Shown: positions 1 to 11,092 of the stretch, piece by piece
Numbering within the stretch: position 1 is the first letter of the stretch
Layout: every line of letters begins with the position of its first letter
DNA from: Pseudomonadota bacterium
GTDB taxonomy: Bacteria; Pseudomonadota; Alphaproteobacteria; Rhodobacterales; Rhodobacteraceae
Assembly (NCBI GenBank): GCA_039814625.1
Contig: JBCCAU010000008.1
Location: 64,935-128,934, forward strand
DNA length: 64,000 bases
Direction of reading: 5' to 3'
Notes under the pieces: generated by a model
What the model was told of the DNA's origin: nothing
The model's database searches: none
The model's input: the letters and a program-made list of their open reading frames with translations, nothing else
Program-made: the position numbers and the translations under genes

Positions 1-252
1 TTGGACTCTTCAGGCGGCAGCGGATGAGGGTCTTCATGAGGGGGGCGAGCCGCAGTCGTTGCATCTGCACCGTGTTTTTCTTGTTGCGTAATACCCGTAG
101 CCATGCCCATATCTCGAAGTTTTGGTAACCAGATCATACTGTATATAGCGGCTTGAAGATGTCTACGAAACTGAAAAACGTCGTGTCGGTGACGTCATTT
201 ATCGCAACAATGGTTGTCGATCTCGATAACCGACGAGTATACTCGCTACGTA

Positions 253-669
253 ATGATCTACAGGAATATCCACCTTGATTTGACCTTCATTGAAGGCAAA
301 GGCCCCGTCTCGAACATGCCGACGCATGGTGGCATTTACGCCGAGATACATTGGCCGACGCGTTCGATCCGTATTGGCGAAACGGGCAATTCGATGCGCG
401 GGCGCAACCGCTCGCACATGAGGTGGGCCGACAAGCACCTTGAGGGAACACACAATGAGAAAGAAGCCGCGCGGAAAGGCCCAATTGTCGACCTTGTGCG
501 CGAATGGGGCTCCGAGGGCCTCGAATACTACGTGATCACGGATGACCCACGGGTCCGCGAGGACCGAGAGTTACGGGTTGAGTGCGAGAAGCGCCTTCAC
601 GAATGGGCGCGAGAGCAGACTGAGTTCACCAACATCAACACGCAGCGCGGATACCGCACCGTGAACTAG
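253..669 (+). CDS. GIY-YIG family endonuclease
   Basis: GGIYAEIHWPTRSIRIGETGNSMRGRNRSH matches the GIY...(Y)IG-x-T...R...H pattern, with a later conserved Glu; ATG at 253 preferred over TTG at 214. Confidence 0.75.
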   Translation: MIYRNIHLDLTFIEGKGPVSNMPTHGGIYAEIHWPTRSIRIGETGNSMRGRNRSHMRWADKHLEGTHNEKEAARKGPIVDLVREWGSEGLEYYVITDDPRVREDRELRVECEKRLHEWAREQTEFTNINTQRGYRTVN

Positions 670-1382
670 TACCAGCCCGCCAGCGAGCCTTGGCCTGACA
701 ACTGCGGTTTGAGGTGTTGTGCCGCGAACGCGCCGACGATTAGCGAAATTCCAAGGTCCCCGTGACCGCCTCGCGACCGCTGCTGTGTGATCACCTGATT
801 GCCGGCGGCGGTCGTTGACGTTGTGAACGTCGCAAGGTCGGCTTCGATCTCGTCGCGCAAAGGCAGGTCCTGCGCGAACTGCAATTCCCCCGACGCAAAC
901 ATGACTGCCGTGTTCTCGATCATGAATGTCTTCCCTGCGTTGATGTACTTCCCATTCCGTCGCCACTCCTGACCGCTTGTCATCTGCACAGCAAAGTGCG
1001 GCACTCCTTGGTCGTCGAACATGTCCGACACAACGCGCCCGATACTCGTCCCATCAATGACAAGCTGCGACTTGCCCCCGAACGGCGGCGCATTCTTCAA
1101 ACGCACGAGGTGGTCGACGACCGCGACATAGGACACGCCTCGAAACCTGTCCGCATAGACGACGTTCAAACGACGCGGGCCAAGCTGCGCACCATCGGGT
1201 GTCATTTCAGGAATTTGCTTGTCTTCGAGAACACAGATGGCCGTGAAGTCGTTCGCCTGACCGAGATCCGCCGACACCCAGTAGCGTCGGTAGCCCGTCA
1301 GGCGCGCGACCGCAGGGTCCGCGTTCGTCTCGTTGACGATTGTTCCGTCTGGGCGTTCGACGAGGTTCAAAGTATCGGACAT
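666..1382 (-). CDS. Terminase large subunit, stand-alone C-terminal RNase H-like nuclease domain
   Basis: SADLGQANDFTAICVL, LVIDGTSIG..V.D and HGDL acidic motifs; own AGGAG RBS upstream of the ATG. Confidence 0.8.
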   Translation of the reverse strand: MSDTLNLVERPDGTIVNETNADPAVARLTGYRRYWVSADLGQANDFTAICVLEDKQIPEMTPDGAQLGPRRLNVVYADRFRGVSYVAVVDHLVRLKNAPPFGGKSQLVIDGTSIGRVVSDMFDDQGVPHFAVQMTSGQEWRRNGKYINAGKTFMIENTAVMFASGELQFAQDLPLRDEIEADLATFTTSTTAAGNQVITQQRSRGGHGDLGISLIVGAFAAQHLKPQLSGQGSLAGWY

Positions 1383-2146
1383 ATGGCCTTCTCCTGTGAC
1401 GTTGCCTGCTCGATCACGGACAGGTCAAAATATGAAACGCCATCCGCGAGAAATTCACACATCACCTCGGCACGGAATCGTGTCGCGGACAGTGTGCGGC
1501 GCAGACGGTCGACCTTCGCCTTGAGGCGTGGGATCGACGTGCCGGGCACCTTGATGCGATGCACGGCCTCCTGAGGCTCGAGGAACATTTGCGCGAACAG
1601 GTTACCCTTTCCTGCGGGCGTTGACGCGTAGAACGCCTGCCCGTTGTCTTTCAGCATGGGCAGGATCGACGAGATCACAGCGTCGTCATTCGGTAAGAAC
1701 GCGCACTCGTCCACGAGAAGCAGGTCTGCTGTGTAGCCACGGATCGTCGCGCCCGACGCCGGAACTGCGATGAACCTCGAGCCGTTATTTGCCTCGATCT
1801 CGGTCAGCGTGGACCGTTCAATAACTAAGTTGGTCGTTTTCAGGTAGCGTGCGACCTTCCGTGTGATCTCTCGCGTCTGGCGTTCGGCGGGTGCAAGGCA
1901 GATCGTTGTGCCCCCGCGCTCCATTTCGCGCACGCCTCGAGCCGCAAGGACACACGACTTGCCCGCCTGACGACACACGAGTAACGCGACGGTCTCGGCG
2001 TCCGACGAGAACGCCTCGGTCTGCCATGGGTCCGCAATTGCACCCGGGATTTCCGTTTGCAGGAAGCGGCCCATCTTCAAACCAAGGTCGTTGTCGCCTT
2101 CGATTAGGTCGAGGAAGTCGATAAATGCGGAGGCATCAAGCGGCAT
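1367..2146 (-). CDS. Terminase large subunit, stand-alone N-terminal ATPase domain
   Basis: Walker A CRQAGKS, Walker B LLLVDE, motif III ASTP, and C-terminal F.AE.MCEF linker. Confidence 0.88.
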   Translation of the reverse strand: MPLDASAFIDFLDLIEGDNDLGLKMGRFLQTEIPGAIADPWQTEAFSSDAETVALLVCRQAGKSCVLAARGVREMERGGTTICLAPAERQTREITRKVARYLKTTNLVIERSTLTEIEANNGSRFIAVPASGATIRGYTADLLLVDECAFLPNDDAVISSILPMLKDNGQAFYASTPAGKGNLFAQMFLEPQEAVHRIKVPGTSIPRLKAKVDRLRRTLSATRFRAEVMCEFLADGVSYFDLSVIEQATSQEKAICPIL

Positions 2147-2435
2147 CTTGGCTCGGGTCTATTAGGACCATGATCAGGCCGCGGTCGAAGTCATCTTCCA
2201 TGCGCACACCGTAACCTTTGTTGCGCAAGTCCCAGTACATGGTCGAGCGGATCGCGTCGTCTGACCAAGGCGTGCCTTTCTTGCTGACGCAAATGCGGCG
2301 CAGTTGTGCCATCGTCGCGCCTGTGCGCAACGCCTCGACGATCTTCTCCTGCATCGTGCCCGCTTTCGGCGGATACACTTTGAGGCCTGTCGGGTGGATG
2401 TGGATGCGTCCATGACGTGATTTAAATCCCGGCAC
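2136..2435 (-). CDS. Small winged-helix DNA-binding protein (DUF3489-like)
   Basis: GTMQEKIVEAL..GATMAQL....W....IRS pattern; overlaps both neighbours. Confidence 0.55.
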   Translation of the reverse strand: MPGFKSRHGRIHIHPTGLKVYPPKAGTMQEKIVEALRTGATMAQLRRICVSKKGTPWSDDAIRSTMYWDLRNKGYGVRMEDDFDRGLIMVLIDPSQDAA

Positions 2436-2994
2436 TGCTGTCTCCTTTCGTGACGGACAGCTTCTCCTCGTTCAGCAGGCGAAGCAGTGTTGGGCGAATT
2501 TCGGGATGGGCGTCCACGAGTTCGCGGAATATCTGTCGCACGCGCAGCCATTCGGGGGCCTCGGACAGTGCGACCGTGACTGTCAGATTCTGGGCCAATT
2601 TTCCCTGTAAGGAGGCGATATCCCTGAGGACCTTGCGCAGGCTCTCGAGGCCCGCCAATGCGAACGCGTCGTCTTCCGTCGACTCCGCCCGCGACACAAT
2701 CGCGTCCACGCGTTTCGCCAAGCTCTCGTAGGTGCGCGACACGTCCAGCCGCTCGTCGTTGAGCATCGACGTGATCTCGTTCGCACGCCGCACACGATCC
2801 TCGGCCAGAATTTCGTGCCGCCGCATGTCGTCGATCCGCAATTGGATGTGACGGTTCACGGACGACGGATGGCACCCGATGATTGCGGCAACCTCGGCTG
2901 TCGACTTGCGCTTCAGAACAAGGTCGGCTTCGAGTTCGGCTTTCTGTGGGTGTAGGTCGAATTTCGACTTCCCGCCTGAATGCTTGTTGCCCAT
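2422..2994 (-). CDS. Terminase small subunit-like protein
   Basis: N-terminal HTH (STAEVAAIIGCHPSSVNRHI), coiled-coil middle, C-terminal APEW...HPE; lies upstream of TerL. Confidence 0.65.
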   Translation of the reverse strand: MGNKHSGGKSKFDLHPQKAELEADLVLKRKSTAEVAAIIGCHPSSVNRHIQLRIDDMRRHEILAEDRVRRANEITSMLNDERLDVSRTYESLAKRVDAIVSRAESTEDDAFALAGLESLRKVLRDIASLQGKLAQNLTVTVALSEAPEWLRVRQIFRELVDAHPEIRPTLLRLLNEEKLSVTKGDSSAGI

Positions 2995-2995
2995 G

Positions 2996-3403
2996 TCACG
3001 CGACTCCCGCGAATTTCATGGGCAACGCGCATTCGTGGATGTCATACATCGGCAGCACGAAAGCCAGAGCATGAGAGAGGACCGTCCGTTGATACGAACC
3101 CGCACAGCAGACCCGATAGGCATCATTCGCAAGATGGCCCCGAACACCCGCAGCTACCAAATCCTCGCGAGCATCAATCGGCTCGCTACCCTTGAAAACG
3201 ATCAGGTCCAGAAAGGCCACATATGCCGCGATCCTCGCAACGCGCGGGACGTGGCTCAGCGCGTCCAAATTGAACGCCGTGAACGAGCCGCTGCCTGACG
3301 ACACCTCGCCGTGATCCGAGACGACGGGATCGCTCAGGTCGCCATAGTCGAGACCCGTTGCAAGATGCAGGACGGCTTTTTCTTCATTTGTCAGCTTGGG
3401 CAT
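2996..3403 (-). CDS. Hypothetical protein
   Basis: 135-aa ORF tightly packed between operon neighbours. Confidence 0.6.
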   Translation of the reverse strand: MPKLTNEEKAVLHLATGLDYGDLSDPVVSDHGEVSSGSGSFTAFNLDALSHVPRVARIAAYVAFLDLIVFKGSEPIDAREDLVAAGVRGHLANDAYRVCCAGSYQRTVLSHALAFVLPMYDIHECALPMKFAGVA

Positions 3404-4010
3404 TTTGAGCCTCCGCCGCGCGAGCCATCAGGTCCAATTTCTGGGCCATGTGCTGAGGCAGGTCTGTGGCGTCTTTGAACGTGCGCAACGTGTAGCCGTC
3501 GCGCTCCGCCGCCATTGAATTCTGAACGAACCCCTGACCACCCATCGCAATGTCGTGGCGCACGTAACGCACTTTCTGCGCCGTGTCCTCGAGCATGTCG
3601 ATTGCCGACGTGTCCACGTCCTTCTTCGCGTGCTGCGGGATCGGCTCGCCTGCACCTTCGCGGTCGTCGACGATCTCGAGTTGCACGTTCTGCTCTTTCG
3701 CAAGGTTTTGCGCCTGCGTGTATTTGAAAGGATCAAGGGCTTCCGTGCGCGTGATCTGCACAGGGTCGCCTTCCTTGCGGTACGGGGCTTCGATCTTCGG
3801 CGTCTCAAGCTTTTTGAGCAAGGCGGCGTAGTCGGCGGCTGTTGGGGTTTTGGGTGCGTCGGGGTCCTTGGGACCCTTGAGTTTCGTCAGCAGGTCGGCG
3901 TTCATCTCGTAAACGTCGTCATACTTCTTGTCTTGCGCGTCGACCTTCTCGGTCAGCGCCGTGACCTGCTGAATGAGCACCTGCAAAGCGGCTGCGGTCT
4001 GATCGGTCAT
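3384..4010 (-). CDS. Hypothetical protein, possible capsid scaffold-like protein
   Basis: AGGAGG RBS; N-terminal coiled coil and Pro/Lys-rich linker; first gene of the packaging block. Confidence 0.65.
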   Translation of the reverse strand: MTDQTAAALQVLIQQVTALTEKVDAQDKKYDDVYEMNADLLTKLKGPKDPDAPKTPTAADYAALLKKLETPKIEAPYRKEGDPVQITRTEALDPFKYTQAQNLAKEQNVQLEIVDDREGAGEPIPQHAKKDVDTSAIDMLEDTAQKVRYVRHDIAMGGQGFVQNSMAAERDGYTLRTFKDATDLPQHMAQKLDLMARAAEAQNAQADK

Positions 4011-4026
4011 GCGATCCTCCTATCCA

Positions 4027-4075
4027 AAAGCAAAATGAGGGGCCTCGATGTCCGACCCCTCATTCAGTTTGCTTT
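4027..4075 (-). terminator. Putative intrinsic terminator upstream of the packaging block
   Basis: Minus strand AATGAGGGG-loop-CCCCTCATT followed by TTGCTTTT. Confidence 0.5.
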
Positions 4076-4154
4076 GAACAGGTATGGGACACGGTCATCG
4101 CTAATGTTTTGGACAGCGAGAAAGGAGCGCTCAACCATTGAATAAGGTGGATCG

Positions 4155-4676
4155 TCAGGCAGTAATGTTCGTTTCCCATTCGTCGAGCAAGGACGCGTTC
4201 GCGGGAATGAATGGTGAGCCATTTCGACCGGGTGGCGGGTCTTTTGGCTTAGTCGGGACGGGTTTCGGACGTGCGCGTTTCGGCTTCGGGAGTGGTGGGG
4301 GTTCCATCATCTCGCGATACAACGCGCGCGCCTCGTCGATCCTCTCTTGCTTGAACCTCGCGACACCGGGCGTGTTCTCGCCCGCCTTCACAAATACCGG
4401 TATGTCTGTGACGCCAAGGAGCAAGTCGCGCATGTGGTCAGTAAGGCTGTCGCCATCAACGCCGATCTGCGAGCAAATCCAATTTCGATGCGCCCGCCAT
4501 TCGCCACGCGAGGCCGTCAAGAATTTGATGGCTTCCGTTTGTGCGATCAATCGCGCGTCACCTCCTTGGAACGCCTGCGGCGAGATTGCGTCGTTGAACG
4601 CCTGAAGGATGATGTGGGCAAACAGGTTGCCGCACTTCATCCCCTCTTCGATGTTATAGGAAGGGTCGTTGTTCAT
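4155..4676 (-). CDS. Phage-type hypothetical protein
   Basis: LF..II.QA..DA......A..FL.....W....C..IG.D pattern recalled from phage hypothetical proteins; Pro/Lys-rich tail. Confidence 0.6.
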   Translation of the reverse strand: MNNDPSYNIEEGMKCGNLFAHIILQAFNDAISPQAFQGGDARLIAQTEAIKFLTASRGEWRAHRNWICSQIGVDGDSLTDHMRDLLLGVTDIPVFVKAGENTPGVARFKQERIDEARALYREMMEPPPLPKPKRARPKPVPTKPKDPPPGRNGSPFIPANASLLDEWETNITA

Positions 4677-4978
4677 TCCGCGAACGGATCGCCGTCGTTG
4701 CCGCGTGCCTGCGCTATGATCGACGGGACGTAGGCCAGGGGGATGGCTGTCGTCGGGACAGAATTCTTCGCGATGTGCAGGTGGGTCGGTGACAGCGTAA
4801 CGCTGTAGGTATCGTTTTCGTTTTTTACGTCGACAGGGATCGCGTGGAGCGAGGGGATCAAGGCGCGTGGGACGACTTTGGTGAGTAGTTCCCGTGGAAA
4901 TTCAATTGATGCGCGTTGCGTGAAGATGTGGCACTCGAACGTTGTTGGGTCCGTCGGTGTTGCGGTGTAGTCGGTCAA
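4673..4978 (-). CDS. Hypothetical protein
   Basis: TTG start with AGGAGG RBS; 4-nt overlap with the next gene. Confidence 0.6.
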   Translation of the reverse strand: MTDYTATPTDPTTFECHIFTQRASIEFPRELLTKVVPRALIPSLHAIPVDVKNENDTYSVTLSPTHLHIAKNSVPTTAIPLAYVPSIIAQARGNDGDPFAE

Positions 4979-5205
4979 TTGGGCCTCCTGGTTGTCGGTG
5001 AATTGCGCGTCCGATAGCGCAACCTAGAAATGACCATCGAACGCGCGAGACCGCCCACCCATCCGTTGAGGCGGTCGCCAATGAATATCAACCGCCCAGG
5101 GGAAGGTGTTCCGGGGATTGAGGTGGATTCGGAGAAGTTTGAGGTGGAATTTGTAAGTCGACCAAACTACTTGAATTCGGCCACGCGCTGGAAAAGACTA
5201 AAGCA

Positions 5206-5589
5206 ATGAGGCTACTAGTCGTTGATGATGAAATTCGCACATTGGGCGCGTTTACCTATAGGCTTGAAGAGATGGCCGAGGTAGTAGATTTGGTGGAATC
5301 CGCAGCCGACGCATTTGCAAAAATTGAACTGGTTGGGCGTTACGGCTACGTCATCTCGGACCATAGACTTGGACCAGACTCATTCTCTGATGAGCAGCAC
5401 AACGGCATTTTTGTACTATCCGCAATCTCCGAAAAAGCGCCTGGGACCAAGACTATCCTTTTTACACTGAGTCCAGACATTGAACGCCATGCACTCCAGG
5501 GTGGTATCGACGCCTGTTTCAACAAAATGCAACATCGAGAGTTGGTGGATTGGATAAAATCGGATTGGGAACTTAGACGGGGAGCATGA
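5206..5589 (+). CDS. Single-domain response regulator (REC)
   Basis: LLVVDDE, ISD phospho-acceptor, LFT and FNK; all receiver catalytic residues present. Confidence 0.85.
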   Translation: MRLLVVDDEIRTLGAFTYRLEEMAEVVDLVESAADAFAKIELVGRYGYVISDHRLGPDSFSDEQHNGIFVLSAISEKAPGTKTILFTLSPDIERHALQGGIDACFNKMQHRELVDWIKSDWELRRGA

Positions 5590-5590
5590 T

Positions 5591-6262
5591 ATGTCGGATG
5601 AAAATGAAACTGGCGGATTTCAAGCAAGGGCCTTTGACGAGCTTGTTAGGCTGGGAAAATGGATCGTAGATCGTCGAAAGCTGACACGCTCTGACATTTT
5701 TTCGAAAGACATTGAGCCGTTAATCGACGAATTGGATAGGACCCATGAAGACTTTCTGGTGGCCCTCCGAAAAATGGAGGTGGGTATCAGCAGCACGCTT
5801 GCTGCTGAATCAAGGAAGCAAAACTCAATAAATGAAGAACTGGAGCGACAAATCTCAATTTGCCACGACGTATCAGAGTTAATTGAAAAAGGAAGGCTTC
5901 AACGTCGAAAGTTGTTTGAGAAATGCTTGGCTCGGTATGTTGATCTTCGTCAGAATGGCGCTCACCAAATTGGTAAAAGGGCCTTTCTTATGCCGAGCGA
6001 TTTGGAGCTCATAACAAAGTTTTACGATGCCTTGATGGCGTATTTCACCAATGATGCCTCAGAATACGACCACAATGTGCGAACCATGATTGGGCGGGTT
6101 GAAAGTTCGCTTGAAGCGGCCAAGTTCAATGGTGTGACTGAAATGGTAGTGAACGATCTTCGCCAGCATTTGAGCGATCTGACAGCCATGGAAGATGCGT
6201 TTTCCAACAATTGGTCCAACGCTGTTCAGTTTAGGTTCCAGCTTGAGGCAAGGCTGACCTAG
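5591..6262 (+). CDS. Hypothetical all-alpha-helical protein coupled to the receiver gene
   Basis: 223-aa ORF starting 1 nt after the REC stop, GGAG RBS. Confidence 0.75.
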   Translation: MSDENETGGFQARAFDELVRLGKWIVDRRKLTRSDIFSKDIEPLIDELDRTHEDFLVALRKMEVGISSTLAAESRKQNSINEELERQISICHDVSELIEKGRLQRRKLFEKCLARYVDLRQNGAHQIGKRAFLMPSDLELITKFYDALMAYFTNDASEYDHNVRTMIGRVESSLEAAKFNGVTEMVVNDLRQHLSDLTAMEDAFSNNWSNAVQFRFQLEARLT

Positions 6263-6617
6263 ACAATTGGTCGCAAATTTCGACGGCGCTGTTGATTTGC
6301 TGTTCGTCGGGTATGGTTGCACAGATTATTAACGAACACCCCATTGCTGACGCAGAGGCTGCGTCTCTGATGCAATTTCACCGAACGTTGTCTACATATG
6401 TTGCGGTGGTATCGCCATCTGAAGGTTGCACTTCGCACTCTCCGACCCAGCTGCATCTGATTGATGATCAGCTGTTTTCTGTTCCAACTGATTGATAAGC
6501 AAGTGAATTGGACGGCTTTGCAATTGAAACGTTGCAATTTGCCCGTGTCTCTGACGGCAGCAAGGAGAGAAGTCTGGGGGAGATCACCAAGAGTGTGCGC
6601 GAATATACACATCCGTC

Positions 6618-6883
6618 TCAGACCTGACCAAGCCTTACCAAGGGGCTAACTCGCTAACCCGTTGTTCTTAAAATCGCTCTCAGGCTTCTCAGACTTCACA
6701 GACCTTAAATGTGATTTGTGTATATACCAGCCAGCGCACACGATCCACGACGCACGCAACCGCTCACGGATAAAACTGAACTCACCCCCACAAAGCCTGG
6801 TAGTCTGACCAAAATGAAAATCCCGCAACGCTTTCAAAACGTTACGGGATTCAGACTTCATGACGAAGCCTGAGTAAGCCTGA
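6618..6883. repeat. Iteron-like repeats (TCAGRCYT), putative replication origin
   Basis: Nine direct or inverted 8-mer copies immediately downstream of the primase-helicase gene. Confidence 0.65.
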
Positions 6884-6900
6884 GAGATTTGACCAAAGCC

Positions 6901-9209
6901 TTAGAACGCGTCCTCACGCGCCTTGTGTTCAAGAAACGCCTCCGCCGATCCCTCGCCCGTCTGTGAATATGAGAACGAACGCCACGCTTCCATCTCGGGA
7001 TACGTTTCGCCCGTCACTTTCGACACGATGCGCTGGAACGTCGGAAGGTCAGGCAGGCGCAAGCCGCCACGAAAGTCGTTTTTGACAGGCTGCATCACCA
7101 TCACGCCCTCTTGGCTCGCATAAGAATGCCAGCGATCAATAACGGTGCAGTATGTTTCTTTGACGCAGCCAAACTTGCGCACCATCTCGTTGCGCACGGT
7201 CTGGGAACTCTCGCGCCCGCCATGTTTGACATACTCGCGATGCAGCGACGCCGACGACACAGTACCGCGCCCGCGCAAGTCATCCGGCATACGCCTGTTT
7301 CTGCGATCTCGTTCATGAGTGCGAGTAAAGGGTCTGACGCGATCTTGTCTGACTTCTTCGCCTCTGTGACATAACCATAGCCGATCAAGCCACGGTCAAC
7401 CTCGTAGTCGAGCAGGTATTGCAAAACCAAGCCCGCGTTGTCGTCAACGAGGTCATAGTATGGCTGCCAAAACGCACGCGCCTCGCGACTGTTTGGATCG
7501 TGTTCGAACTTCGAGTTCATTTCGATCACCGTCCACCTTCGGTCGTCGTTGTCGATATGCACGGCTTGCGTTGCGTTGGTCGTCGCAATGACGCGATGCA
7601 CATTCTTGCCTGTGAATGATGCGAGATACTTCTGCTCATACGTCCAGACGTCCGACGTGACGAATGACTTCATAGTTGCCGCTTGTTGGCGTGATCCCGC
7701 AAACAGCGCCTCCTCGCACAGCACGAACGTTGAGCCGAACAGGTCACGATTGAAGCGGTCAAACATGCGAGTAGAACCGTGGATGGTCCGCGCGTGACGT
7801 TCACCGAGTAATTTGCGCATTGCACGTCCAAGGAACGTCTTGCCTCCGCCTTGTCCGCCACGCAGCGCGAGTGCTGATCCTGGATGTATCGACCACGGTC
7901 GTTGAATCGCGTCCGCGAGATACGTCATGACCCAGTGCGCAAGATCTTTGTCGCCACCACAGACAATGTTCTCGATATAGTCGATCCACAGTGACGGGTC
8001 GCCGCGCTTTGGCGTAACGGCCCATTCTTCGAACACATTGAACCCTGCACCTTCATAATCCGGCGACTCGATCACGATGCCTCGGTATTCGTTGCGGTCA
8101 ACGTCCATCATCCACAGCTTCGCCATAGGCACAGGGCCGTTCTTCGTCGGTACTGTGTGAGGTGCTGTCATGTCGAAGAACGAATTCTTGGGATAGCAGT
8201 CGCCATCCTCCTTGTTCAGAAACTCGACTTTTCCCTCGACAATCATCATAGCCCATTCGCGATTGAACTTCTCGACAATGCGATAGTGCAGCGGTGCGCG
8301 TGAGCCTTTTTCGAGACGGATCGTCGTCTTCCACATGGCTTCGATTTCTTGAAATGCCAGCGGGCCGTCAGCGAACGCCTCGTGAAACTTCACGCCCTCT
8401 TGGTTCAGTCGAAACAACTCGGCTTTGATGTCGCTATCTGTCCAGCCACGTGACTGCATTGACCGCGCAATGCGCATCAGCAAGTCGTTGCGTCCTGCGG
8501 GATCAACAGGCACCTTATAGCCTAGGTCAGAGTCGTCCATGACAGGATCGGCTTTCGCCATATCAGCGAGAAGCGTCGCGTCGATACGACACTTCTCGTC
8601 GATGAATCTCAGTACACCAAGCAAGTCAGCGTCGTCCGCATATGAGCCGCTGTTACTTTCGGAAATCACCCACGCAATCTGACACTGTTGGCCTCGCAGC
8701 GGCAGATTGACAGACGTTGGTTTGTCGTCAGGGCCTACAAGCACCTGCGACGCTTTTGGGAAAATCTCGATATGCTGCTGCCAATCCTTCGGCATGTTTC
8801 GGCGTTTCGATGCCAAGAAGTCGTGCATCAATTTTGCAGACACAGGCTCATCTGGAAAGACGACGACGTGTAGGCCGCGCGACTTCGTGCGAAATGCAGC
8901 AGATGGGCAGCGCATCCGCTGTTGTACCTGCAACACGTCATCCTCCAGCATGTCGTAGATGTCGAAGTCGAGAACGCCATAGGCGCACGTGCTGTCTGAC
9001 TTCACAGGTGCGATGCCGTAAGACGCCTGCCCAAGCAAATGCGCGTTCGCCATTTCGAGGGTCACAGGTGCGTCAATCAGCGTGACTTCAACTTCTGCCT
9101 TGCCTTTTTTGTCTCGACTACCTTTCGGCGTTAGCGAGATGTGTCGGTCCTGATTGCCGTCGAATAGTCGCAGGAATGTCTCTGCGGCTTGGATGTCATA
9201 ATCGTCCAT
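6901..9209 (-). CDS. Primase-polymerase / SF3-type helicase (AEP + PriCT + DUF5906-like), frameshifted near 7291
   Basis: VLDFD and S.GLH AEP motifs, GRND PriCT motif, Walker A GGQGGGKT, Walker B LCEE; natural C-terminus continues in the 6901-7290 frame. Confidence 0.82.
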
Positions 9210-9340
9210 TTCGTTTCCTTCTTCTTAGAAAACGCAGGAGTCACCTAATTTTGGCGGTCGTCGTTCGACTATCAATCGCTTATATGTATTTGCGACCGAC
9301 GTGTTGGTCAGTTGATGAAGTGATAGCCATGCGAACGACG

Positions 9341-9375
9341 CGGCGCGGGAGGTGACTCTCGCGCCGTTTTATTTT
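9341..9375 (+). terminator. Intrinsic-terminator-like hairpin antisense to the xis-primase transcript
   Basis: CGGCGCGGGAG-GTGA-CTCTCGCGCCG followed by TTTTATTTT on the + strand. Confidence 0.55.
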
Positions 9376-9599
9376 GCTGCAATCCGATTATCTTGGAGCC
9401 AGTCGATCAGGTCGGCTTTCAGATACCGAACGATCCGCGCTTCGGGCTGGCTATAAGCCGGGCCTGTTTTGCGCTTGCGATGCTGCAACAAGTAATCCTC
9501 GGACACGCCAAGGAATACAGAAGCCTGCTTCGTCGTCATGATCTCTGGGGTCTGCGCGTGTTCAATTGCCGAGCGCAGTTCGGCTATGAGGTCTGTCAT
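9369..9599 (-). CDS. Excisionase/AlpA-like HTH protein
   Basis: MTTKQASVFLGVS...L...R....GP.Y......VRY...DL..W HTH_17-type pattern; AAAGGAG RBS before ATG at 9599. Confidence 0.85.
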   Translation of the reverse strand: MTDLIAELRSAIEHAQTPEIMTTKQASVFLGVSEDYLLQHRKRKTGPAYSQPEARIVRYLKADLIDWLQDNRIAAK

Positions 9600-9758
9600 G
9601 ACCAATGCTCCTTTCAAAGCATTCGGTCAGAACTTCCAGAACATCTCCCTCCTTGGCTGCGCCAGACGATGTTCCTTGGCCACCGAGTTGGGGTGAACGC
9701 CTCAGTGGGGACCTGTTTAAAGCAAAAGCGCGCGGCGACACCGCACGCGCGCCGGACA

Positions 9759-10916
9759 TTACGCAGAAAAGATGCTTTCCGCAACGTCAAAAGAAGAAGT
9801 CGACTTAGAAACAATCTGTTGAGCGACTGCGTTCACGTCGTCGTGGGAGCCAGCCGACTTGATGTATCGGCTCACCGCACCCTTTGCGACGACCTTGTCG
9901 CCGCGCAAATGTTTGATGGTTATCTCAGACAAGCCGACTAGAGCCGCACCCGTGGAGAAGACAGATCGACCGTCTTTCGGGCGCAGCAAGTTCGGGTCAC
10001 CAAGTGGACGGGGCACAACCATCGGAGTGTCCCTTGTCATCGACGCGAACACCCAACGATCATGTATTCGGGGCAGCGATTTGAACGCTGCGACGGCAGG
10101 ATCAGAAAGCGGGAAGGTCCGCTTGAGGTCATTCTTGAGACGCGGGATAGTCAATTGCTTTGCGTCTAGGTCTAAGTGTTCCCATTCGATTTTGCGTAGG
10201 TGGCCGGGACGAATGCCTGTGAACACGACAGCTCCCCAGAAAGCACGCTGACGGCGATCCTTAACCTGCGTAACTAGGTCCATAACAGGCCAAGGTTTAT
10301 CGACGTCAAACAGGAGTTCGTCCTCTCTTTGGCCGAACCCTTGCACACCGTGCGTTGGGTCGTGTTCGAGATCGTTCTGCAACATTAGTTCGTTGGCGTA
10401 GATGGAAGACAGGATGCGGAGGAGTTTGGTTGCAGTTGTCGGCTTGTGGGCGAGTGAGCGAATGCGGTCGTTGACCATCGCCTTGCGAATTTTCAGGATC
10501 GACAAATCGAGCCAATCAGCCACGTGATTGTTAAGCGTGTTCTCGTAATCGTAGATCGTGTTCTGACGCTTGATCTTGGTGCGGGGATCAATCGGATTGC
10601 GCGTGTGGCGGTCGAACGCTTCGCGCAACGTGACCTGCTGTTTCGCCGTTGCCGTTAAGCGCCCTTCGTTCACGGCCTCATTCTGTTCACCGACTTCGCG
10701 ACCCGCAGCCAGATAATCGACGAGCGGCCACGTCCCAATCGTTCGCACCGTATTCTTGCCATCTTGGAATTTTCGGAAGCGCCATGTCTTCGTCTTCGCG
10801 CCCACTTCCATATACAGATTTGGAAAACGGGCATCGCGGTAGCGATCTGTTCCGCTGCCTGAATGTTTAAGCTTATCGAGTGTGCCTTTGGTGAATGTGA
10901 TCGTCTGCGTTGCCAT
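9759..10916 (-). CDS. int: Tyrosine recombinase/integrase with arm-binding N-terminal domain
   Basis: N-terminal arm-type domain, FTGIR box I, KDGR box II, C-terminal RY; adjacent to the att repeat. Confidence 0.9.
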   Translation of the reverse strand: MATQTITFTKGTLDKLKHSGSGTDRYRDARFPNLYMEVGAKTKTWRFRKFQDGKNTVRTIGTWPLVDYLAAGREVGEQNEAVNEGRLTATAKQQVTLREAFDRHTRNPIDPRTKIKRQNTIYDYENTLNNHVADWLDLSILKIRKAMVNDRIRSLAHKPTTATKLLRILSSIYANELMLQNDLEHDPTHGVQGFGQREDELLFDVDKPWPVMDLVTQVKDRRQRAFWGAVVFTGIRPGHLRKIEWEHLDLDAKQLTIPRLKNDLKRTFPLSDPAVAAFKSLPRIHDRWVFASMTRDTPMVVPRPLGDPNLLRPKDGRSVFSTGAALVGLSEITIKHLRGDKVVAKGAVSRYIKSAGSHDDVNAVAQQIVSKSTSSFDVAESIFSA

Positions 10917-11048
10917 GAGGTCGGGCTCCATTTTGCAATTGAATTTTGCAATTGCGTAGTCGCCAAAACCGTGTCCGATCAACCGGAAGTCATTGTTTTT
11001 AAGGTAAAAACTGTCAGATCCACCGTGAGCAACCGACTTCCATTGAAT

Positions 11049-11092
11049 TTGTAATCAGTAGGTCCGCGGTTCAAGTCCGTGTGGGGGCACCA
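11049..11092 (+). repeat. att site: duplicated 3' half of tRNA-Thr(UGU)
   Basis: TTGTAATCAGTAGGTCCGCGGTTCAAGTCCGTGTGGGGGCACCA contains anticodon loop, T-arm GGTTCAA and CCA, but has no intact 5' half. Confidence 0.85.

Follow-up and report, generated by a model that had tools for sequence, protein, structure and literature searches.

A tRNA-Thr-integrated element of a Rhodobacteraceae bacterium with a two-gene large terminase and no recognised head genes, a probable member of an undescribed phage-satellite family

The 64,000-nt stretch of DNA analysed here, called the window, corresponds to positions 64935-128934 of contig C11 in a 2.8-Mb, 26-contig Rhodobacteraceae genome (assembly GCA_039814625.1). 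Its left end is occupied by part of an integrative element, which carries an integrase, a replication module and a large terminase encoded by two genes. An earlier note, made from the letters of the window, had guessed that the missing end lay at an intact tRNA-Thr(UGU) gene with attL, and had proposed to retrieve the upstream DNA as far as that gene. In the fetched stretch, locus L001, which holds the window's copy of the element together with the DNA to the left of the window, ARAGORN located an intact tRNA-Thr(TGT) gene at window positions -3220 to -3145, 3.1 kb left of the window. A 46-bp direct repeat, ATTTGTAATCAGTAGGTCCGCGGTTCAAGTCCGTGTGGGGGCACCA, was found at the 3′ end of this gene (L001 4744-4789) and again at L001 18981-19026. 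Because this attachment (att) repeat bounds the element on both sides, its extent is 14,237 bp, from window position -3144 to 11092 (L001 4790-19026). Hence, the element sits integrated at a tRNA-Thr gene, as had been guessed, and the upstream DNA provided both its full size and its gene list.

The features of the element are collected in Table 1. The order of integrase, excisionase, primase-helicase, iterons and reversed cargo, continuing onward on the minus strand, was as the earlier note had described. The element is laid out like a Gram-negative phage-inducible chromosomal island (PICI), with a complete terminase and without capsid, portal, tail or lysis genes. Pfam and PHROG scans of all its open reading frames (ORFs) gave no match to a capsid, portal, protease or head-tail connector.

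Table 1. Features of the element; positions are those of the window unless L001 is given.
Feature	Position	Strand	Basis
In-window part of the integrative element	1-11092	-	46-bp att repeats
attR, partial copy of the tRNA-Thr 3′ end adjoining the integrase gene	11047-11092	+	direct repeat
Tyrosine integrase	9759-10982	-	Phage_integrase 2.5e-9, Arm-DNA-bind_3 1.1e-5
HTH_17 protein, excisionase/AlpA type	9369-9617	-	PF12728 3.4e-8
Primase-helicase (AEP primase and DUF5906/VapE-like helicase)	6901-9209	-	Pfam; main ORF 7101-9209
Iteron-like repeat cluster, putative replication origin	6618-6883		TCAGRCYT matches
Reversed low-GC cargo pair: 127-aa receiver-domain protein and 223-aa ORF	5206-6262	+	Response_reg 4.9e-6 (below Pfam cut-off)
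101-aa accessory protein	4673-4978	-	homologues in 6 loci; no family match
173-aa protein	4155-4676	-	homologues in 39 loci, same position; no family match
Intrinsic-terminator-like hairpin with U-tract, upstream of packaging genes	4030-4075	-	RNA folding
Core protein, 208 aa	3384-4010	-	coiled-coil N-terminus, alpha/beta domain
135-aa protein	2996-3403	-	no Pfam, PHROG or PADLOC match
Helix-turn-helix (HTH)-plus-helical protein, 190 aa, probable TerS	2422-2994	-	position, co-inheritance
99-aa small accessory protein	2136-2435	-	phrog_7790 2.7e-8; homologues in 6 loci
TerL ATPase subunit (TerL-N), 259 aa	1367-2146	-	phrog_7579 3.6e-38, Terminase_6N 5.1e-9
TerL nuclease subunit (TerL-C), 238 aa	666-1382	-	family profile vs PDB
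Reversed 151-aa ORF	214-669	+	no Pfam, PHROG or PADLOC match
HhH-GPD glycosylase-like protein	L001 5104-5715	-	family match
295-aa ORF	L001 5787-6674	+	no family match in Pfam, PHROG and PADLOC scans
Type II N6_N4 DNA methylase, 464 aa	L001 6677-8071	-	PADLOC MTase_II 2.3e-137

The two domains by which a large terminase is recognised were found on the products of two genes here, not on one polypeptide. The profile of the first, TerL-N, matched the ATPase domain of T4 gp17 and of P74-26, and its Walker A (R59, Q60, G62 and K63) and Walker B (D146 and E147) residues were invariant in 20 TerL-N sequences. The second, TerL-C, alone matched just an unnamed PHROG, while a profile made from 26 family members matched the solved nuclease domains of Thermus phage terminases (5m1q, 5m1f and 5tge) with E-values from 1.4e-6 to 2e-6, and its residues D39, D110, H207 and D209 were invariant. 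Thus, both halves that the earlier note had called TerL-ATPase and TerL-nuclease were matched by profile and keep their catalytic residues. The start of TerL-C overlaps the end of TerL-N by 16 nt, and an overlap of the same length recurs in the related loci L004, L008, L009, L011 and L012. The split arrangement and the gene lengths (~260 and ~238-245 aa) recur in every relative examined, and the split of TerL is natural and conserved in the family.

To place the nuclease half among known proteins, the TerL-C profile was searched against 1.84 billion representative proteins, of which 4,658 clusters matched at E ≤ 1e-3 and 2,255 at E ≤ 1e-10. Nearly all of the 150 top-ranking relatives were 190-280 aa long, which marks them as stand-alone genes. 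Because stand-alone genes for the nuclease half are so numerous, the two-gene TerL is a widespread arrangement and no local oddity. The closest solved or cultured relatives of the element's TerL are those of the Thermus phages P74-26, G20c and Riverbug, the Meiothermus phages MMP7 and MMP17, and T4 gp17, with the best cultured-phage matches, those to Thermus and Meiothermus phages, at ~33-35% identity. They share the ATPase and RNase H-like nuclease domains and the conserved catalytic residues, but are single polypeptides in complete phages, while the element uses two genes with the conserved 16-nt overlap. The nearest of the cultured-phage proteins, that of MMP17, sits in a Mu-like head module, where genes for the portal, head morphogenesis and the major head protein come after it. 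MMP17 was considered as a possible split-TerL phage and rejected, because its TerL is a single protein of 415 aa. In a contig from IMG/VR (L078 6544-11361) a split TerL of 254 and 232 aa adjoins a TMP_3 tape-measure gene, which indicates that some split-TerL lineages sit with tail genes.

The gene directly upstream of TerL-N in the family encodes the 190-aa protein, which consists of an N-terminal HTH and long helices. It was present in 69 loci, always in this position. It is also homologous (hhalign probability 99.6%) to the product of a 188-aa gene upstream of a distantly related split TerL, the TerL-C of which matches the family profile just at ~1e-25. Hence, the trio of TerS-like, TerL-N and TerL-C genes is inherited as a unit down to distant relatives, which fits the role of a small terminase subunit. 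The matches of the 190-aa protein to TerS PHROGs were weak, so that the earlier TerS call has architecture, position and co-inheritance in its favour, but no significant match in sequence or fold. Overall, these data suggest that the 190-aa protein is probably TerS.

The 208-aa core protein, present in 60 loci, ends in a conserved helix with the sequence pattern DDLPxHMxTKxxLMEKA, and its structure was predicted with a pLDDT of 76. It could be considered a candidate capsid-assembly or helper-interaction factor, while a role in capsid redirection is a guess, because the protein has no recognisable fold relative. For the same protein, the label "scaffold-like" was not borne out by fold searches of PDB and BFVD. 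A distant relative, L089 1268-5011 (a Logan contig from ERR10900017), encodes a 440-aa DUF4055 protein, which we take to be possibly a portal, two genes upstream of its TerS-like, TerL-N and TerL-C trio, and a reversed Eco57I-like restriction-modification gene after the trio. The idea that the 208-aa protein is a truncated portal was rejected, as it showed no similarity to the DUF4055 protein at the same position in this relative.

Around these genes the packaging region contains small ORFs. Between the 208-aa and 190-aa genes, ORFs of 126-141 aa were found in many loci, and they were absent in L009, L018 and L024. The small gene between the probable TerS and TerL-N had been labelled wHTH, for which there is no basis in its sole match, phrog_7790, a group with no assigned function. 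The terminator noted earlier upstream of the packaging genes was recovered as a strong hairpin followed by a U-tract, with a folding energy of -30.4 kcal/mol (z = -5.3), and none of 200 shuffled sequences folded as well.

The earlier note had left room for structural genes in the unseen left end, and had named them as the finding that would make the element an ordinary prophage. When the ORFs in the left 3.1 kb were scanned by Pfam, PHROG and PADLOC, no gene for a portal, capsid or tail was recognised; cargo of the restriction-modification type occupies the region instead. The 295-aa protein may be the restriction enzyme that matches the methylase, because its gene adjoins the methylase gene with the 3′ ends converging on opposite strands.

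The earlier note had proposed to look for the same synteny in Rhodobacterales. A scan of one genome per species recovered 63 genome loci with the same gene order. In this constant order the integrase gene comes first, usually with an HTH_17 gene after it, then the replication module and one cargo slot. Next are the 208-aa gene, the TerS-like gene and the two TerL genes (TerL-N before TerL-C), and a second cargo slot separates these from the tRNA. The replication modules are of at least three types, and the integrases of family members are mutually 20-45% identical. Att repeats bound 36 of the copies, at tRNAs which, where identified, were those for Asn, Thr, Lys, Ala and Gly, and in the 28 copies with an ARAGORN tRNA at an att end the intact tRNA is distal to the integrase gene. 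In complete genomes the flanks of the element are ordinary chromosomal genes. Hence, the homologues do not always sit inside full prophages, which the earlier note had regarded as evidence against a satellite, and the att-bounded copies measure 13.06-15.95 kb.

The family is mostly found in one order. More than 130 clusters of ~260-aa proteins belong to TerL-N, and the host names attached to them are all Rhodobacterales except one labelled just Pseudomonadota. The 63 loci are also mostly from Rhodobacterales, with a few from Sphingomonadales, Hyphomicrobiales and Parvularcula. When Rhodobacterales were sampled evenly, TerL-C was present in 17 of the 301 genomes and in 13 of the 112 genera. Among the 37 genomes of its own genus, the window's genome alone gave a close TerL-N match, and a second one, G009, gave a weak match (3.0e-6, 29% identity). 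In IMG/VR five loci were found, one of them close. The suggestion of a distinct alphaproteobacterial satellite class is supported as far as the family is mostly from Rhodobacterales, but the TerS-like, TerL-N and TerL-C cassette extends beyond elements of the alphaproteobacterial type.

Further features were observed in individual copies. Beside the tRNA-side att, ~12 of the 36 elements have two paralogous genes in reversed orientation (~208 and ~260 aa, no Pfam match), ~200-1,000 bp from this att in L014, L033, L041, L046, L047, L055, L057, L058 and others; the window's copy lacks them. Rhodobacter capsulatus DSM 1710, the type strain of the model species for gene transfer agents (GTAs), contains a complete-looking copy (L034), with no tRNA gene and no direct repeat of at least 16 bp within the locus, and a partial copy near tRNA-Asn (L069), which has TerL-N from residue 81 and TerL-C without an integrase gene. 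On the chromosome OX638333.1 of a Roseovarius metagenome-assembled genome, two different family members (L040 and L048) lie ~14 kb apart, apparently in tandem at tRNA-Thr.

To describe the variable genes, the non-core proteins of at least 180 aa from the 36 copies were grouped into 111 clusters and scanned with Pfam. The families found included restriction-modification enzymes, AAA_15, AAA_21 and AAA_13 ATPases, UvrD helicases, a protein kinase and Mrr, and no capsid or portal family was among the 25 most frequent of the 73 Pfam families. The data showed that the two variable slots carry defence-type cargo, including restriction-modification systems, Abi-type ATPases, DndB and others. In the window's copy, the inner slot holds the reversed cargo pair, with a GC content of 0.47-0.48 compared to 0.55-0.60 elsewhere, for which PADLOC gave no match. 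Relatives carry other genes in this slot, for example DUF4145, or GIY-YIG and Mrr. The reversed ORF in the slot at the other side of TerL had been labelled GIY-YIG, a label that the scans summarised in Table 1 did not bear out.

The length of the elements was less variable than that of their parts. The 36 att-bounded copies had a median length of 14,473 bp with a standard deviation (SD) of 523 bp. For comparison, each copy was divided into a left arm, from att to the end of the 208-aa gene, a right arm, from the end of TerL-C to att, and the packaging core between them. The lengths of the arms had SDs of 799 bp and 710 bp, and they were inversely related, with a Pearson r of -0.76 (p = 7e-8) and a Spearman coefficient of -0.80 (n = 36), where the p-values are optimistic because the copies are related. 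When the right arms were reshuffled 10,000 times, the total lengths were never as tight as the observed SD of 523 bp (mean 1,097, minimum 663 bp). The same effect is seen in a single pair, as the window's copy and L008 are 95% identical in nucleotide sequence across the integrase and excisionase genes and 87% in the packaging module, while their replication and cargo modules are unrelated and their total lengths are nearly equal. A fixed total length with compensating arms points to a limit set by the capacity of a capsid. Heads of T=4 size, such as those filled by P4 and by Staphylococcus aureus pathogenicity islands, have a capacity close to ~14.5 kb, a length that is also near one third of a 43-kb genome.

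The homologues of the HTH_17 protein in related elements were annotated as HTH_17 or Phage_AlpA in a domain-level test. The primase-helicase contains the predicted primase and helicase domains, so this part of the earlier call was right, but the gene is frameshifted near 7266-7290, and its last ~115 residues are in a separate ATG-initiated ORF (6901-7290). In tblastn, an intact 789-aa homologue aligned in two different frames, over residues 8-654 and 647-761, and the homologues are single proteins of 783-792 aa. The frameshift may be a real mutation, in which case replication of this copy would be impaired, or an indel of the assembly. The iteron cluster proposed as the origin was recovered, as six of the eight TCAGRCYT matches of the whole window are located within the 266 bp at 6618-6883, in direct and inverted copies; its role as an origin is putative.

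The comparison with known systems indicates which of these properties are shared. Gram-negative PICIs of the EcCICFT073 type likewise measure 14 kb, have site-specific att and lack structural and lysis genes. At one end they have a gene for a tyrosine integrase, after which come an AlpA/HTH_17 gene, a primase-helicase and an origin; the distal half contains the packaging module, and they also carry defence cargo. The 14,237 bp of the element are within the PICI range of ~7-18 kb. Classical PICIs differ in that they depend on the TerL of the helper and have no packaging genes beyond TerS, Rpp, Ppi or those for capsid morphogenesis, while the family has a complete two-gene TerL with a TerS-like partner, and the PICI packaging genes show no sequence relationship to those of the family. 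The hosts are also different, since the family is found in Alphaproteobacteria, which the SatelliteFinder survey does not mention (PMC10085698).

Other satellites that encode both terminase subunits, as the element does with TerS being probable, are the capsid-forming PICIs (cf-PICIs) and the Streptomyces satellites MulchRoom and MiniFlayer. TerL is listed as a distinguishing component of cf-PICIs, which also encode a major capsid protein, portal, protease and head-tail connectors, so that tails are all they steal (PMC10085698, PMC10690885), in agreement with the comparison of PICIs and cf-PICIs made in the earlier note. The element is different from cf-PICIs, MulchRoom and MiniFlayer in the lack of those head genes and in the division of its TerL into two genes. 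P4-like satellites share an integrase and a large, alpha-like primase-helicase, and their size of 11-14 kb is also near the T=4 capacity, but P4 uses the P2 terminase via cos sites, while the element has a terminase of its own, and no element ORF matched Psu, Sid or Delta in Pfam or PHROG.

The VEIMEs, PICMIs and PICI-like tycheposons resemble the family in their marine hosts, in combining integrase, primase and packaging-related genes with defence cargo, and in the inferred hijacking of phage heads. VEIMEs and PICI-like tycheposons are described with TerS homologues, motor-like ATPases or a capsid gene, with the helper's TerL presumed (PMC9618062; 10.1101/2020.12.28.424599), and a complete TerL without capsid genes does not appear in the descriptions of VEIMEs, PICMIs and tycheposons. 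VEIMEs and PICMIs are packaged as concatemers. EPIPs encode TerS along with further components of head and tail (PMC12822802). No published account was found of a capsid-less and portal-less satellite with a complete terminase, or of satellites in Rhodobacterales, in a literature search that covered subscription journals little. Because the element differs from PICIs by having TerL, from cf-PICIs by having no head genes, and also from P4-like satellites, it would be placed in a new family within the phage satellites.

We propose, with a probability of about 0.6, that the element is a member of an undescribed family of phage satellites that bring their whole own terminase and borrow the procapsids and tails of a helper. 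This proposal is based on the anatomy of the element, its conservation and the length constraint, while packaging and the helper are deduced from sequence. Upon expression of the helper's morphogenesis genes, the integrase and the HTH_17 protein would excise the element, which the primase-helicase would then replicate, starting at the putative iteron origin. As TerS, the 190-aa HTH protein would recognise the element's DNA and recruit the two-piece TerL, whose ATPase and nuclease subunits would be made from translationally coupled genes. The motor would then dock on helper procapsids and fill them with the element's DNA, while the helper would supply tails and lysis. The length of ~14.5 kb could be held because the DNA must fit a fixed head capacity, either that of a small head of T=4 size, perhaps built with the 208-aa protein, or about a third of the head of a 43-kb helper. 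The anti-phage cargo in the two variable slots would pay the host for carriage.

The host genome contains possible sources of heads. Its sole capsid and portal genes are located on contigs C18, C20 and C21. A cluster of the RcGTA type (C18:39659-53226) contains portal and capsid genes, a protease-sized gene, a DUF2460 gene (5.7e-79), a 1,333-aa distal gene, and a 467-aa gene assigned to TerL by its position. A prophage-like head-to-tail module at ~57-93 kb of C20 has genes for a 402-aa portal and a 397-aa capsid with Pfam matches, together with ORFs of 602 and 695 aa in the positions of TerL and tape measure, which were assigned by ORF size. The end of contig C21 (1-6 kb) gave weak portal and capsid matches. 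The head genes on C20 and C21 could be considered as candidate resident helpers.

Several observations weigh against the proposed satellite. Excision, replication and encapsidation are deduced from sequence. The 190-aa protein gave no significant TerS match, either by sequence or in a fold search of its AlphaFold model against PDB, and the 208-aa protein gave none by sequence profile against PDB or by fold against PDB and BFVD. No close relative of TerL was found in any cultured Rhodobacterales phage, and a foreign TerL would have to dock on the portal of an unrelated helper. The resident prophages and the RcGTA-type cluster contain no paralogue of any protein of the element, and in 26 of the 36 carrier genomes the GTA capsid gene is the sole one of PF05065 type. 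The length statistics ignore the relatedness among copies, and the window's copy may be impaired by its frameshifted primase-helicase. Finally, stand-alone Logan contigs of 13-15 kb, considered as a possible free form of the element, were rejected, as their ends overlap by 11-13 nt within the att core; they are no sign of a free form, because the k=31 assembly graph breaks at the repeated 46-50-bp core.

Among the other explanations, the one that survives best, though we consider it unlikely, is that the element is an integrative defence island or a mobilisable island whose terminase-like proteins do not package it. Such proteins could cut or sequester the concatemers of an infecting phage, block its portal, or process the DNA of the island for another route of transfer. 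The dominance of defence genes in the cargo would suit this explanation, encapsidation is deduced from sequence and the identity of TerS is just probable, and published defence systems and satellites, to judge by the titles of the reports (for example PMC11417361), target terminases and packaging. On the other hand, interference alone leaves the 14.5-kb length with its compensating arms unexplained, as well as the conserved ATPase and nuclease residues with their co-inherited DNA-binding partner, and the element's own replication module and origin.

A parasite of a GTA, which appears improbable, was considered because 34 of the 36 carrier genomes contain a high-scoring RcGTA-type capsid gene, in 26 of them with no other PF05065 capsid, and because the window's genome has the cluster on C18. 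The element is not a GTA itself, as it has integrase and replication genes and no head or tail genes, and the genome's GTA cluster lies elsewhere. As a parasite, it would bring its own sequence-specific terminase, because the GTA terminase packages indiscriminately, and also a factor that enlarges the head, possibly the 208-aa protein. This would explain the need for a whole terminase, and the hosts of the family, Rhodobacterales with a few Sphingomonadales, Hyphomicrobiales and Parvularcula, resemble the range of RcGTA-like clusters. However, RcGTA-type heads package ~4 kb and are thus 3.5 times too small, and we know of no satellite that enlarges heads. The co-occurrence with the GTA capsid weighs little, because GTA clusters are common in the order, and because helpers with other capsid Pfam families and non-resident phages are outside the count. 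Furthermore, the 64-kb window contains no CtrA-type TTAA-N7-TTAA site, and the element's TerL gave no profile match to the GTA TerL at E ≤ 1. If true, this would be the first known satellite of a GTA, diverting the domesticated particles of the host to spread a selfish, defence-loaded element of 14.5 kb.

A prophage that decayed by deletion of its head, tail and lysis genes is very improbable. The position of TerS and TerL corresponds to the start of the late operon of a prophage, the primase-helicase is frameshifted, and two loci are in keeping with such an origin, namely L089 with its DUF4055 gene, which may be a portal, and L079, where a fused TerL is followed by a portal gene. Nevertheless, 36 copies from many genera, at five tRNA sites, share gene content and size, with intact core genes and variation just in the cargo, and deletions that arose separately would not all end in a single architecture and length. 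Equally hard to credit is a very small autonomous virus with its capsid and portal among the four to five conserved ORFs without a recognisable family, even though small HK97-type viruses are reportedly being described, to judge by the title of PMC13669383, since the family-less ORFs of the packaging region (101, 173, 208 and 135 aa) total ~620 aa while known portals have at least ~300 aa and HK97 coat proteins at least ~250 aa, the largest of these ORFs is predicted to form a coiled coil and a small alpha/beta domain and not the HK97 fold, and there are no tail or lysis genes.

A satellite with its own terminase, as proposed here, would fill a place between the known ones, which either borrow everything, adding at most TerS, or build their own heads; it would use its own motor and a borrowed shell. 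Its conserved genes would provide a defined set for testing how a foreign terminase engages a helper portal and how head size is controlled. The compensating lengths of the arms would be a rare signature of a packaging limit that is purely sequence-based, and could be reused to recognise other satellites. The naturally split TerL, with thousands of clusters of stand-alone nuclease halves, bears on the mechanism and evolution of terminases. Because Rhodobacter capsulatus DSM 1710 is among the carriers, and this species has established genetics and a GTA that is well studied, the family is open to experiment. It has copies in ~5% of the genomes sampled from a marine order that is ecologically dominant, and the anti-phage cargo in its two exchangeable slots is diverse.

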